In this document: positions 32,888-36,657 of the stretch, piece after piece | Numbering within the stretch: position 1 is the first letter of the stretch | Layout of the letters: every line of letters starts with the position of its first letter | Assembly: GCA_013204385.1 (NCBI GenBank) | Contig: JABMNY010000029.1 | Span: 1 to 52,815 of the forward strand | DNA from: Candidatus Uhrbacteria bacterium | GTDB taxonomy: Bacteria > Patescibacteriota > Patescibacteriia > UBA9934 > GWF2-40-263 | Direction: 5' to 3' | Length of the DNA: 52,815 nt | Notes under the pieces: model-generated | What the model was told of the DNA's origin: nothing | What the model saw: only the letters and a program-made list of their open reading frames with translations | Database searches by the model: none | Program-made: the position numbers and the translations under genes

Positions 32888-33087
32888 ATATGGAAAATAA
32901 AACGACGCCCTTATGGGGCGTTTTTCTGATTTACATCATCAAGAAGAAACACCCACCTATGGCGTTGTTGTTGTCATCTTAGATGTAGAATTTTGGAGTG
33001 ACATACCTAAATGACAAGTTAAAGACTTTTTGATGACTTGGCAAATGAACCTGTGGACGAAAAAAGCGTTATTCACAAAAACAAAAC

Positions 33088-33117
33088 AAAAACAGCACTT
33101 AATTGAGTGCTGTTTTT
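33088..33117 (-). terminator. Terminator downstream of the split tRNA
   Basis: aaaaacagcact-taattg-agtgctgttttt. Confidence 0.75.
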
Positions 33118-33137
33118 GTGGTGTCCCTGGAGGGAAT

Positions 33138-33225
33138 ATGGTTGCCAACAGACTCCACCATATTGCTCTCGTTCGCTCGGAATCATCCAAACTCCGTTTG
33201 TCTGTTCTCTCGCTCGCTCCAGCAT
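33138..33225 (-). mobile_element. 88-bp insertion in the T-loop of the split tRNA
   Basis: Interrupts GGTTCG|ATTCCC with AT junction redundancy. Contains GAGCGAGCGAG, GAGCGAACGAGAGCAATAT and a terminal hairpin. Confidence 0.7.
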
Positions 33226-33264
33226 CGAACCCCCATCAAGACCTTAGAAGAGTCCTGCTCTATC

Positions 33265-33441
33265 ATGAGATGAAGTGAGTGTACAAAATACATACCCCTT
33301 ACGATGGTGGCCTGAGCAGGACTTGAACCTGCAACCTTGAGTTTAGAACACTCCTGCTCTATCCAGTTGAGCTATCAGGCCAAGGGTGTAAGGGGTATGT
33401 ATTTTGTACCGAACGAGGCGATATGATCTGAGAATCAGATC
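33265..33441 (+). mobile_element. 177-bp insertion in the D-loop of the split tRNA, carrying a complete tRNA
   Basis: ATC junction redundancy, 22-bp perfect inverted repeats (33281-33302 and 33388-33409), CGAACGAGGCGATAT and terminal hairpin gatctga/tcagatc. Confidence 0.75.
33305..33381 (-). tRNA. Nested intact tRNA-Arg(TCT)
   Basis: GGCCTGA/TCAGGCC acceptor stem, anticodon loop gtTCTaa, GGTTCAAGTCC, encoded CCA; 77 nt. Confidence 0.92.
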
Positions 33442-33553
33442 CGTTGAGCTACAGGGACGAATATAAGAAAGTCTAGCGCAACGCAATCATAGCGAATCTT
33501 TCGAAAAAGAAAAAGCGACCGTGCGTTATGGTCGCATTGAGAGGAGTTTGGCT

Positions 33554-34297
33554 CTAGGAAGCACGCTCTCCAAGCTTGAGACTCAGAAGCGCCCTTGAAG
33601 AACCGCGATCCACGATAGGAGCATAGGCTTTGGACGACATGAACTGAGCCCTCAAAAGACGATGACGACGCTCAGTCTCCGCAGCATCGACCAGGACGAG
33701 TACACATGCCTGCGAAAGAGACTCACGCCTCAGTACCGTCTCGACCACCTTCCAGATGAGCCCCTGCAAAAGTGACTGTTCCCGCGAGATCCCAACCTCT
33801 CCGATCCAGAGATGATTGATGACCAGATAAGGACCTTCTCGACCAACCCGTGAGTAGATCTGACCAAGAAGGGTCATCGGCATGTTCGTGACACCAAGCA
33901 CAGTACTCGAGTCACATACGACACAGGTCGCGAAGCCAGCACACTGAGCGGGAGAGGTGAGACTCTGAGCCAGAGCAATGCCCCCAGCATTCAGGTACCG
34001 ACAAAGTTCCTCTCGAGCTGACTCCTCATCCCACTGAAGAACGACTGTTCCGCCACAGATTCTGAGACCGACTCTCTGGACACACTTCGCATCCCGTGGG
34101 GGACTCAGGTAGACATGTGCGCAGGAGGCACACACAGAATCATTCCGATGAGGCGCAGACCCGACCTCCTGAAGGAAGCCGTGGATCATGCTGTCTGAGA
34201 TCGTCCAGTTGATGGGCTTAGGTGGCGGAGGGGAAGAGAAGATCTGGATAGGCCGACGAGCGTCAGTCAGATAAGAATCAGGTTGAGCCACGTGCAT
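33554..34297 (-). CDS. Hypothetical protein (possible degenerate GNAT-like fold)
   Basis: 247-aa ORF with a GGAG RBS and its own promoter. The fold suggestion is weak. Confidence 0.55.
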   Translation of the reverse strand: MHVAQPDSYLTDARRPIQIFSSPPPPKPINWTISDSMIHGFLQEVGSAPHRNDSVCASCAHVYLSPPRDAKCVQRVGLRICGGTVVLQWDEESAREELCRYLNAGGIALAQSLTSPAQCAGFATCVVCDSSTVLGVTNMPMTLLGQIYSRVGREGPYLVINHLWIGEVGISREQSLLQGLIWKVVETVLRRESLSQACVLVLVDAAETERRHRLLRAQFMSSKAYAPIVDRGSSRALLSLKLGERAS

Positions 34298-34343
34298 CTC
34301 CGTGTATGAGTGTTCTCAGACACAATCGTCATTGAACGAAGAA

Positions 34344-34372
34344 ATGCTAAAGGAAATGTGAACTTTGGTCAA
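34344..34372 (-). promoter_or_regulatory. Sigma70-type promoter whose -35 overlaps the MITE target duplication
   Basis: TTGACC (34372-34367), 17-nt spacer, TAGCAT (34349-34344). Confidence 0.5.
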
Positions 34373-34481
34373 CCCCGCTGGTGGTCTCCCATCAAAAGAA
34401 TATTAACTATCGGACAAAGCCGACGGCGCCTAACGGCTTAGAGATATGTCTCCTGCTTAACATCTTTGACCACCAGCGGGG
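34373..34481. mobile_element. MITE copy 2 (109 bp)
   Basis: Perfect 14-bp terminal inverted repeats CCCCGCTGGTGGTC, flanking direct repeat TCAA (34369-34372 and 34482-34485), central aagccg..ggcgcc...cggctt. Confidence 0.85.
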
Positions 34482-35411
34482 TCAAGCTCTCCGACTCTTT
34501 CCATGAAACTTTTGATGGACGTCTTTCATCTGTTTATTGGTGATATGTGTGTAAATCTGGGTTGTGGTGATTGAGGCATGACCCAGAAGTGACTGAACGG
34601 ACCTGATATCCGCACCCCCCAACAGGAGGTCTGTCGCGAAGGTGTGACGCAACGTATGAGGGGTAATATGTTTTGTAATACCCGCCGATTTTGCATAACG
34701 CTCCACAAGCCGCTGAATGGATCTAGGAGTAAGGCCCCCTGAAGCCTCTCTGCCACTTTTTGCTCGATCATGACCAACAAAAAGAAAGGGGGAAGCGTCA
34801 CGTCGTTTCCCAAGATATTCCTTGAGAGTCTCTTTTGCTGTTGAAGACAAAAACACGACACGGAGTTTCGAGCCTTTTCCTCGAACCGTGAACTCATCAC
34901 GTTTCAAATTAATGCTTTCGATTTTTAGTTTGGAGAGTTCGCTTACCCGCAACCCTGTTGAGAACAACAATTCAAGAATCGCCTTATCACGCAATGCCAC
35001 CAACCCTTCACTTTGCAACATCGGTTGAATGAGGAGACGATCAAGCTCCTCTACCTCCAAAAACTCCACCTGACGTTGCTCTTGACGAGCAAGTTCTATC
35101 TTGTCAGGAGCCAGCGAAATAATATCTTTGCGAGCGAGGTACTTCAAAAAACTCCGAAGAGCGATCAAGTGATAATTCTGTGTCGACTTCTTAAGCGTTT
35201 CTGCCTCACGTCCTTCTGGAGTTCTGTTGAGCCATAAACGATACTTATGCACGAGATCATCTGTAATCTTTTCAGGTGAAGGATGTTTTGCCCATCTAGC
35301 AAATCGACGCAAATAAAAATCATAATTGCGAATGGTGAGTTCGCTTCTTCCTCGCTCAACCTCTAAGTACTCTAAAAAATCTGTAATCAGTTTGTCGATC
35401 TGAGTTCCCAT
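34482..35411 (-). CDS. Tyrosine recombinase XerC/XerD-like
   Basis: RDKAILELLFSTGLRVSEL, GKGSKLR, HTLRHTFAT, LLGHASITTTQIYT. Start at ATG 35411. Confidence 0.95.
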   Translation of the reverse strand: MGTQIDKLITDFLEYLEVERGRSELTIRNYDFYLRRFARWAKHPSPEKITDDLVHKYRLWLNRTPEGREAETLKKSTQNYHLIALRSFLKYLARKDIISLAPDKIELARQEQRQVEFLEVEELDRLLIQPMLQSEGLVALRDKAILELLFSTGLRVSELSKLKIESINLKRDEFTVRGKGSKLRVVFLSSTAKETLKEYLGKRRDASPFLFVGHDRAKSGREASGGLTPRSIQRLVERYAKSAGITKHITPHTLRHTFATDLLLGGADIRSVQSLLGHASITTTQIYTHITNKQMKDVHQKFHGKSRRA

Positions 35412-35468
35412 ACTCCACAAGTATAACATCGCCTGAGAGTCTTCTCTATGATAGGATAAGGACGTTCT

Positions 35469-35846
35469 ATGAAAGACTTGCTTCATACAACCCTAGCGCT
35501 TACAACAATGATCACACTTGTGGCATGTTTGTTTGTGGTAAATCATCAAACGCATTGCGCGATCCCATCAGAAAATAACTTGCTTCTAGGGAATGCTTGT
35601 ACGGCGGAAGCACTCTCAAATCCAACCATCTGGACGCTGAATGAAACAAATGGAACTCTTCCATCCGAAAAATTCCAAATCATTATTGCCTTCGTCGTCT
35701 TATTTTTCACTCGTCATCTCTTCTCTCAAATCAAGCGTCCTGAGAGAGGTCTCTCTTGGTTGCAACGACGTAAAATTACAATCCGTTCTGGTCCCGCCCC
35801 CAATCAACTTTTTCTTCCATACTTGTTTGCAACCCACGGATGGTAA
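35469..35846 (+). CDS. Small hypothetical membrane protein
   Basis: Two hydrophobic segments; lies upstream of the DsbA-family gene. Confidence 0.55.
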   Translation: MKDLLHTTLALTTMITLVACLFVVNHQTHCAIPSENNLLLGNACTAEALSNPTIWTLNETNGTLPSEKFQIIIAFVVLFFTRHLFSQIKRPERGLSWLQRRKITIRSGPAPNQLFLPYLFATHGW

Positions 35847-35892
35847 ATCAGTCTTCGTCTGAGTCATTCACTTATTTATTCGAAATTATCTT

Positions 35893-36657
35893 ATGGAATC
35901 CACACACACAACAAAAAATTTCTTTGATGCCCTTCAATCTAAACAAGCATTCTGGCTTGGTTTCATCACGGCTGTCCTTGCTCTTGGAACCCTCGGTTTT
36001 GTACTCCTTGGATCTTGTCTCTTAGGAGGAGATTGTTCCGTTGCTGGTATTGCCGTAGCAGAAGATAGTGGATCAGGATCCGGTGCGGCTGCGGCAGCTG
36101 CGGTTGCCGCTGTTCCAACACCAACGGCAACAGGCGTCCCTGCTGTTACAGATGCGGACCACATTCGTGGAAACAAAGATGCCGCCATCACCATTATCGA
36201 ATACTCTGACTTCCAGTGCCCATACTGCAGTCGTTTCCATCCAACCATGCTTCAAGTCATGGAAGAGTATACGGACTCAGTTCGATGGGTCTTCCGTCAT
36301 TTCCCACTCTCATTCCACCCAGAAGCGGTTCCATCTGCAAACGCAGCTGAATGCGCTGGTGCACAAGATAAATTCTGGGAATATGCAGATGAACTCTTTG
36401 CAAACCAAACAAGCTTGAGCTCTGAATTCTACGCACAACTTGCAGCTGACCTTGGATTGAATGTGAGTAAGTGGCAGACCTGTTTTGACGAAGGTACATA
36501 CAACGACGTAATTGAGGCTCAGGCTCAAGCCGGTGGGGCCGCTGGTGTCTCTGGAACACCTGGATCATTTGTGATCGATCAAGATGGAAACGCCATCCCA
36601 ATCAAAGGAGCGCTTCCATTCAGCTCAGTCGCCGCAGCCATCGATAGCGTGCTCTAA
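35893..36657 (+). CDS. DsbA/BdbD-family thiol-disulfide oxidoreductase
   Basis: EYSDFQCPYC, RHFPL, GVSGTP, GALP. Confidence 0.92.
   Translation: MESTHTTKNFFDALQSKQAFWLGFITAVLALGTLGFVLLGSCLLGGDCSVAGIAVAEDSGSGSGAAAAAAVAAVPTPTATGVPAVTDADHIRGNKDAAITIIEYSDFQCPYCSRFHPTMLQVMEEYTDSVRWVFRHFPLSFHPEAVPSANAAECAGAQDKFWEYADELFANQTSLSSEFYAQLAADLGLNVSKWQTCFDEGTYNDVIEAQAQAGGAAGVSGTPGSFVIDQDGNAIPIKGALPFSSVAAAIDSVL

Follow-up and report, generated by a model that had tools for sequence, protein, structure and literature searches.

A window of 52,815 nucleotides from the genome of a Candidatus Uhrbacteria bacterium, an ultra-small organism of groundwater (GenBank assembly GCA_013204385.1, contig JABMNY010000029.1) carries a tRNA-Arg(TCT) gene that is interrupted twice, by an 88-nt insert in its T-loop (33138-33225) and by a 177-nt insert in its D-loop (33264-33440/41), the latter enclosing a second, intact tRNA-Arg(TCT) gene. 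Our analysis shows that both inserts are copies of one small insertion-element family which lacks open reading frames (ORFs), and suggests that a subfamily of it carries a tRNA gene that would take over from the one it interrupts; for this explanation as a whole we estimate a probability of about 0.7. The family is restricted to Ca. Uhrbacteria and some related Patescibacteria. A published description of these elements was not found in the literature; supplementary tRNA tables may hold relevant entries. The window is contig C20 of this genome (G000; 1.05 Mb, 48 contigs, 97% complete, with a transfer-messenger RNA (tmRNA), which marks it as bacterial), and it is compared below with genomes of the same genus (G003-G008), of other genera (among them G012 and G082) and of another family in the same class (G216).

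Two inserts of one element family

The outer tRNA-Arg(TCT) gene lies on the minus strand (33458..33119), with its CCA encoded, and is divided by the inserts into three pieces. The 5' piece (33441..33458, minus strand; 18 nt) holds the acceptor 5' strand, the D-stem 5' strand and the start of the D-loop, the middle piece (33226..33263, minus strand; 38 nt) holds the rest of the D-arm, the anticodon arm, the variable loop, the T-stem 5' strand and TTCG, and the 3' piece (33119..33137, minus strand; 19 nt) holds the 3' part of the T-loop, the T-stem 3' strand, the acceptor 3' strand and CCA. Each is an exact substring of the intact gene of G005, the boundary of the 5' piece being ambiguous by 2-3 nt, and together they span the whole 75-nt G005 gene exactly; the middle piece has 98-100% identity in G004, G005 and G006. 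A hairpin resembling an intrinsic terminator (33086..33119, minus strand) directly follows the outer CCA and would end a transcript that also holds the inner tRNA. The T-loop insert (33138..33225) has the same orientation as the tRNA and is a standard 88-nt member of the family, while the D-loop insert (33264..33441, plus strand) is reversed relative to the tRNA and bears the cargo.

A preliminary description of this DNA had proposed that the two inserts are one family in opposite orientations, and a covariance model built without them bears this out. A first alignment (A1) mixed subfamilies and gave no consensus structure; the model (R1) was therefore built from a second alignment (A2) of 14 members, none of them from the window. 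Run over the 52.8-kb window on both strands with filters off, R1 matched the T-loop insert at 33138-33225 on the minus strand (56.4 bits, E 8.6e-12) and the D-loop insert at 33263-33438 on the plus strand (19.3 bits, E 0.014), the latter over its full length with a 99-nt insertion in the loop of stem P2; the next-best match in the window reached 12.5 bits (E 0.67). The layout that the two share opens with ATG and a purine-rich run, continues with a stem-loop and CGAACGAG..GC.ATAT, and closes with a terminal hairpin that overlies the junction. In the T-loop insert the 3' module (CCGAGCGAACGAGAGCAATAT), including the 3' strand of helix P1, lies at 33160..33180 and the terminal hairpin P3 at 33138..33161 (both minus strand), with closing A-T pairs that run on into the flank. 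No member contains an ORF, in agreement with the proposal that the element is non-autonomous, and a scan with Rfam gave no family matching either element at gathering or E-value thresholds.

A structure of four helices was taken from single-sequence folds and then tested on the members of A2, where 88.4% of cells are paired compared with 73.3% in column shuffles (0 of 500 reach the observed value) and 34-46% in slid controls, so the shared layout that had been noticed is better than chance. Compensatory changes are seen in 15 of the 23 pairs. P1 is formed by bases 2-6 and the bases immediately before AUAU, with a fourth pair that varies between G-C (8 members), U-A (3) and A-U (2). A second helix has (GAGN)n opposite (CGAR)n, giving tandem G.A/A.G pairs that alternate with two Watson-Crick pairs (at column pair 15/95, five members have C-G, three U-A and four U-G). 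The P2 hairpin is free in both sequence and length, and P3, which begins after AAU and has closing A-U pairs extending into the flank, is 100% paired with two of its four pairs covarying. As the left junction lies at the base of P1 and the right junction inside the base of P3, the folded model has these two helices bringing both junctions of the element together. Of 15 members, 14 have a purine-rich strand that folds better than the complementary one when RNA parameters are used, and 12 do so under DNA parameters.

Elsewhere in G000, members occupy the T-loop position of partial gene copies behind tRNA-Leu(CAA), tmRNA, tRNA-Gly(GCC) and tRNA-Cys, and a conserved GGATGAGAA hairpin precedes such forward T-loop copies within the partial tRNA copies. 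Reversed members lie at the 5' end of tRNA-Gln(TTG) and after tRNA-Leu(TAG), a tandem pair is present in non-tRNA DNA on contig C37, and contig C27 holds a second nested case at tRNA-Arg(GCG).

Beyond this genome, R1 matches (full elements of 72-134 nt) were obtained in 32 of the 73 genomes of the taxonomic family, representing 14 of its 29 genera, with 0-10 copies each, some in tandem arrays, and with three same-genus genomes having none; a sample of 150 other genomes of the class gave matches in 12, one of which has 19 copies. An exact search for the degenerate 21-nt motif of the 3' module across 185,579 species genomes (one genome per species) gave 21 matches; 10 of these are in Uhrbacteria metagenome-assembled genomes, and the other 11 are scattered over unrelated taxa, roughly as many as chance would give (estimate, about 17). 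A 12-nt core motif occurs at 91 places in the 73 family genomes compared with 13 for a reversed control, the extra matches to it lying mostly in coding DNA or in another repeat family. Viral contigs gave no match to the family, and metagenome contigs gave 24, including small T-loop copies, with the 5' module 41-89 nt upstream in 16.

Two further observations concern the variety of these repeats. The 19 copies in one class genome (G216; 1.1 Mb, L151-L169) belong to a subfamily; several are in tandem or at palindrome centres, and these otherwise near-identical copies differ in the P1 helix, always with compensating changes. In G025 (L106-L108) there are three copies of another repeat, bounded by ATGTCATC...GATGACAT, which holds the family motifs CCGAGCGAACGA and AGTGAGCCGAG in swapped order and may be a permuted relative.

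Insertion into DNA and the choice of target

An uninterrupted 75-nt tRNA-Arg(TCT) gene of the outer type is present in six of eight same-genus genomes (G003-G008), the other two having no match to the middle piece, and both inserts are absent from the empty site in G005, G004 and G006. The exact outer pieces, taken with these empty sites in relatives, indicate that both inserts are DNA insertions with a junction redundancy of 2-3 nt, and the redundancies originally read from the window alone, AT for the T-loop and ATC for the D-loop, hold against the true empty site in these three genomes.

If the inserts were instead introns, removed from the outer pre-tRNA at the RNA level by self-cleavage or by a host enzyme, the outer tRNA-Arg would be functional, and a conserved covarying fold that brings the two junctions of the element together, outer pieces that are 100% identical to the intact gene of a relative, and a 340-nt precursor that folds with z = -7.8 and forms the outer acceptor stem would all suit such a role. 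We nevertheless consider introns very improbable. The D-loop insert is antisense to the tRNA, which places the conserved fold on the other strand, and copies are also found in tandem and in non-tRNA DNA, including sites at a palindrome centre and immediately on the start ATG of four genes, one of them rpsL. Beside or within each of the eight tRNA- or tmRNA-associated copies inspected in G000, at a distance of up to ~200 nt, the same gene is present in intact form. Outer copies in relatives gain more inserts and decay to stumps. The tRNA splicing endonuclease EndA (PF01974), which an archaeal-type (bulge-helix-bulge) tRNA intron calls for, gave no match in this 97%-complete genome. No Rfam intron or ribozyme family matches, and the inserts differ from bacterial group I tRNA introns in lying in the D- and T-loops, not the anticodon loop, with one copy antisense. 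The earlier proposal of a DNA-level element in preference to a ribozyme intron is thus upheld by the empty sites, the non-tRNA and tandem copies, the lack of a splicing endonuclease match and the intact gene copies nearby. Pairing between the two inverted inserts across the anticodon segment of the pre-tRNA had also been predicted, and it is present in the RNA minimum-free-energy fold, but such pairing is an automatic consequence of the inserts lying inverted, a by-product of their orientation that need not matter.

The insertion sites share a short target motif. In 30 of 44 copies the right flank (in element sense) starts AT, and in 22 it starts AT[CT]C; randomly chosen positions of these loci give 6.6% and 0.85%, respectively. 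Many of the 44 sites are related conserved tRNA loops, so these counts are non-independent. Judged from these flanks, insertion seems to take place immediately 5' of AT[CT]C with a redundancy of 2-3 nt. T-loops of the form TTCG^AT[CT]C (e.g. TTCG^ATTCC) carry the motif on the sense strand and the GGAT D-loop carries it on the antisense strand, which accounts for the opposite orientations of the two copies in one gene. At the tRNA-Gln 5' end (TCCCGGAT) the motif is likewise antisense, and in 8 genomes an element lies reversed there.

A GGAT D-loop is found in 4 of the 34 tRNAs of G000, all four being tRNA-Arg. TTCGAT[CT]C is present in six of the 34, of which Gly-GCC, Leu-CAA and Cys have a forward element in an adjoining partial copy and a fourth, Glu-CTC, is adjoined by a truncated element; a forward T-loop element is seen at none of the remaining 28 tRNAs. 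The T-loops of tmRNA and of the outer tRNA-Arg(TCT) also carry a motif of the TTCGAT[CT]C type, and the inner tRNAs of G000 have the T-loop TTCAAGTCC, without the target motif. The AT[CT]C rule predicts which G000 genes are struck. The truncated element beside tRNA-Glu(CTC) is found on contig C25 (L009 1-1345), where the tRNA gene is followed by an island of ~1 kb with a GC-rich ORF (about 425-930). The island closes with a second copy of the tRNA-Glu 3' end and a terminator, after which comes the truncated left end of a forward T-loop element.

The tRNA cargo and the recurrence of the nest

The D-loop insert begins with a 5' module (33265..33280, plus strand) of ATG and a purine-rich GAGN run, which aligns to model positions 1-19 and is kept among the three cargo elements described below. 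A perfect 22-bp inverted repeat (left arm 33281..33302, right arm 33388..33409, plus strand; self-match 22/22, paired in folds) forms stem P2, the cargo slot, and encloses the inner intact tRNA-Arg(TCT) gene (33305..33381, minus strand), which has its CCA encoded and is recognised by ARAGORN and by the Rfam tRNA model at 62.9 bits. The 3' module (CGAACGAGGCGATAT) lies at 33410..33424 and the terminal hairpin P3, a 7-bp stem with a GAA loop ending at the junction, at 33425..33441 (both plus strand). A stem-loop had been noted at the centre of this insert, correctly as far as it went, but the perfect repeat and the intact tRNA gene inside it were not mentioned; the variable central cargo slot that had been suggested for the family is evident from P2, which is unconstrained and in at least 16 cases contains a tRNA. 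The inner tRNA has 93.5% identity to its ordinary counterpart in G012, a tRNA-Arg(TCT) from another genus, compared with 76.6% to the outer type and 67.5-75.3% to the tRNA-Arg(TCT) genes of six same-genus genomes, and being closer to G012 than to its own genus, the cargo is foreign to this genus. The inner gene is probably the working one.

The nest is not confined to the window. A second model (R2) was made from three cargo-bearing copies, those of the window, of C27 and of G082, which align along their whole length; it scores the window D-loop insert, a copy belonging to its training set, at 200.6 bits. In G082 that genome's own, different outer tRNA-Arg(TCT) contains both kinds of insert, one that lies reversed in the D-loop and carries a tRNA and one that lies forward in the T-loop. 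R2 gave 13 further full-length matches, scoring 102-171 bits, in another 12 genomes of the taxonomic family, whereas ordinary tRNAs gave partial matches of at most 85 bits. Twelve of these 13 loci (all but G030:C41) were inspected by eye, and every one has an intact tRNA-Arg (TCT, GCG or TCG) in a 19-26-bp stem, situated in a D-loop at GGAT^AGAGC, with an outer gene that is a tRNA-Arg of the same anticodon or its stump. Inner and outer acceptor stems are different in G030 and G006, and nearly identical in G036 and on C27.

The outer genes show various stages of disruption. Further T-arm elements are present in G065, G078 and G064 and a second, tandem D-loop element in G005, outer genes with extra hairpins in the anticodon loop occur in G005 (L128), G086 (L130) and G064 (L135), and only stumps are left in G084, G088, G063 and G034. 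To judge by these loci, the outer gene appears to be a dead remnant that goes on gathering inserts. The anticodon-loop hairpins in the dead outer copies are short, GC-rich and perfect, with lengths of 20-34 nt.

We propose that the cargo-bearing copy, on entering the D-loop, would destroy the resident tRNA-Arg and functionally replace it with one of the same anticodon in one step. The inner tRNA would be transcribed with the old gene and freed by RNase P and 3' processing, and a tRNA, whose two ends are joined by its own acceptor stem, may for that reason be accommodated in the P2 loop. The dead outer gene would then tolerate more insertions and decay, which would explain the T-loop copy in the window. 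Movement would probably involve a single-stranded DNA intermediate and an enzyme acting in trans.

Other repeats also accompany tRNA genes in these genomes. A different small family, with a 17-19-bp inverted repeat around a conserved core that starts GATGAGAT and ends AGATCG, lies just upstream of an intact tRNA-Arg(TCT) in G007 (L043), G008 (L044) and G017 (L016), and also downstream in G007. In G000 the tRNAs Phe, Val-GAC and Thr-CGT are seemingly missing and were located at contig ends adjoining another repeat, CCGAGCTGAGCTCGG, which, with further hairpins, directly follows the CCA of tRNA-Thr(CGT) and tRNA-Phe (C2, 2750-2880; C19, 22850-22960); several tRNAs look missing because this repeat coincides with assembly breaks.

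Mobilisation and related systems

The element had been suggested to be a substrate either of a single-strand (HUH) transposase or of a tyrosine recombinase, and here the evidence does not establish a class. The sole tyrosine recombinase of the genome (34482-35486) scores as XerC/D/A, with integron-integrase models (including TIGR02249) below their cut-offs, and lies ~1 kb from the tRNA-Arg locus. A xer gene is also upstream of tRNA-Arg(TCT) in G012, G055, G003 and G034, without or before any insert, and its proximity is therefore conserved synteny. A role for Xer acting at a dif-like site was considered and rejected, as no inverted repeat of 10 nt or more was found within 33440-36000 beside xer. 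Between xer and the tRNA-Arg locus is an ORF of 247 aa (33554-34297, minus strand) without a Pfam or NCBIfam match, and since xer is directly followed by tRNA-Arg(TCT) in G012, G055 and G003, this ORF may itself be an insertion.

The neighbouring recombinase gene also bears on the idea that the inserts are attachment-site (att) scars of larger integrase-borne islands or phages, since deleted. T-loops of tRNA and tmRNA are reportedly classic integrase targets, and the 1-kb island on C25 is bounded by a repeated tRNA-Glu 3' end. We would give this idea hardly any credence, because the junction identity is just 2-3 nt, the same covarying core of ~90 nt is found at many different genes and at non-tRNA sites, the D-loop insert carries a whole tRNA and not a 3' fragment, the xer linkage is synteny, and no larger element bounded by these sequences was seen in the family, class or metagenome scans. 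Islands and prophages that integrate into tRNA genes are alike in targeting conserved tRNA loops and in restoring a working tRNA by replacement, but they are kilobases long, bring their own integrase, are identical to the target over a block of ~7 nt or more and replace the 3' part only, whereas this element is 88-177 nt long with no gene and a 2-3 nt redundancy, and substitutes for the entire tRNA from within a hairpin. The window has no attL/attR identity block and no integrase gene inside the element.

A transposase of the Y1 (HUH) class is the other candidate that had been put forward. The sole gene of this kind in the genome encodes 221 aa and resembles Y1_Tnp and the transposases associated with repetitive extragenic palindromes (REPs), known as REP-associated tyrosine transposases (RAYTs). 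It lies on C48 (L011 1300-1965) beside serS, and its flanks (1180-1230 and 1965-1990) hold inverted 21-nt GC-rich REP hairpins; a loose pattern for this REP gave 10 matches in the genome, nine of them of the 21-nt form, and it occurs also on C6, C17, C30, C37 and C40. On C27 a third, partial copy of tRNA-Arg(GCG) is interrupted in its D-loop by a related pair of GC-rich hairpins. That this transposase moves the element in trans, as a single-strand substrate like REPs or palindrome-associated transposable elements, would be in keeping with the strand-specific hairpin fold and the lack of terminal inverted repeats. We regard it as distinctly unlikely, since the transposase gene is flanked by a different REP, and since Y1 genes do not track the element, being present in 24 of 32 element-positive compared with 28 of 41 element-negative family genomes; G030, with 10 copies and 100% completeness, has no Y1 match. 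The association with Y1/HUH genes that was to be looked for is thus not seen. REPs, bacterial interspersed mosaic elements (BIMEs) and elements derived from IS200/IS605 are likewise small, ORF-less, hairpin-based and strand-specific, have no long terminal inverted repeats and are presumed to be mobilised in trans; compared with the REP/BIME-RAYT systems, this element has P1, the G.A helix, P2 and P3, shows no GTAG/CGTC tag, prefers tRNA loops and can carry cargo.

It is conceivable, though doubtful, that the core of P1, the G.A helix and P3 is itself the recombination machine or the sole specificity factor, either presenting the junctions to a ubiquitous host enzyme (e.g. Xer, in the style of integrons) or catalysing its own cleavage and joining, with the cargo form being a selfish tRNA gene replacement drive. 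This drive would kill the resident tRNA-Arg at a D-loop motif that the gene has to retain for arginyl-tRNA identity (A20), and would make itself indispensable by supplying the only working copy. Such a core would explain why no transposase was ever found. Integron attC sites are similar in having a single-strand fold with a variable centre, a conserved base and a recombination point inside the hairpin base, but an integron integrase, attI and a cassette array are all absent here, and sequence is conserved as well as structure. The idea that the terminal hairpin copies its target was considered and dropped, as this was seen in few copies only. Nor does the element have the hallmarks of a miniature inverted-repeat transposable element (terminal inverted repeats of ~10 nt or longer and a target-site duplication of fixed size), as its ends share just ATG...CAT and a redundancy of 2-3 nt is indistinguishable from a crossover dinucleotide.

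A further comparison is with the tRNA-linked repeats (TLRs) of E. coli (Egan & Landy 1978 and Rudd 1999, as cited in PMC8144298), units of tRNA or rRNA operons with a 3' end that repeats the final 18-19 nt of the gene upstream; some are expressed small RNAs, and their origin and function are described there as unexplained. In G000, the forward copies behind Leu-CAA, tmRNA, Cys and Gly finish with a repeat of the adjacent gene's final 19 nt, which begins at the same T-loop position and runs to CCA (the tmRNA copy has ACA for CCA and differs by 1 nt). An acceptor-like strand precedes the Leu-CAA, tmRNA and Cys copies, giving a mini-tRNA layout, and an inverted copy of the T-arm precedes the Gly-GCC copy. 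In layout these sister copies resemble TLRs (PMC8144298), being short and non-coding with a 3' end that repeats a gene from T-loop position 58; the copies in the window lie inside a full tRNA gene without duplication. This family also differs from TLRs in its covarying fold, in occurring in both orientations and at non-tRNA sites, and in having a subfamily with a whole tRNA.

The TLR-like layout raises the alternative that the elements are mainly functional structured RNAs, small RNAs that travel on tRNA transcripts and have tRNA-like ends for processing, and that they multiply through duplication in place and gene conversion, not transposition. Helices rich in G.A pairs are common among RNA motifs that bind proteins. 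The four forward copies ending in the last 19 nt of a neighbour, three of them with the mini-tRNA layout, would fit this well, as would the 18-19 nt rule and the expressed small RNAs of E. coli (PMC8144298). We think it unlikely all the same, as a tRNA transcript would contain the reversed copies (in the D-loop, at the tRNA-Gln 5' end and at Leu-TAG) in antisense, genomes differ patchily in whether they have the element, with bursts that reach 10 and 19 copies in single genomes, copies are found at unrelated sites (gene starts and palindrome centres), and the insertion is foreign relative to same-genus genomes. A mobile element is known to have left fragments in, and restructured, a tRNA-Thr gene of Caldiarchaeum subterraneum (PMC3293823), but that element is 1.8 kb long and encodes a recombinase in a host that splices tRNA introns, whereas here the host is bacterial, the element has no gene and no splicing enzyme was found.

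Several points weigh against our preferred explanation, that of a mobile insertion element moved in trans. The search names no enzyme that moves it: the sole tyrosine recombinase appears to be a housekeeping-type Xer, TnpB, serine recombinases and IS110 gave no match in this genome, the sole reverse transcriptase falls below all NCBIfam cut-offs, and the different REP beside the Y1 gene, and the failure of Y1 genes to track the element, count here too. No autonomous, ORF-bearing copy was found in the 73 family and 150 class genomes or in the viral or metagenome contigs. No RNA run was listed among those containing the sequence, and the assembled contigs of four DNA runs (one study), one of which may be the source of the window, contain the filled form only, with no excision, circles, inversion, joints or same-strain empty site. 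The outer pieces are still 100% identical to the gene of a relative, which would fit a recent event but may also reflect continued use. In 14 of the 44 copies the right flank is without AT at the model boundary (e.g. ACTCC in the T-loop copy of G082), and the non-independence of the 44 sites adds to this. Lastly, the explanation accounts neither for the entry of a tRNA into the P2 loop nor for the origin of the partial tRNA copies with their duplicated terminator and conserved hairpin.

If this explanation is correct, the family would be a gene-less mobile element persisting in a 1-Mb genome, one which strikes conserved tRNA loops and yet always leaves a working tRNA, the cargo subfamily doing so by carrying a complete substitute gene. 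It would offer a mechanism for horizontal tRNA gene replacement in Patescibacteria and would explain nested, fragmented tRNA genes that mislead annotation and break assemblies, while AT[CT]C provides a testable target rule tying orientation to sequence. The GGAT target in the D-loop contains A20, which we take to be the main arginine identity element, and the host may therefore be unable to mutate the target away, which would be an unusual evolutionary trap. The family may also shed light on the E. coli TLRs, unexplained for 45 years, which have the same T-loop breakpoint.

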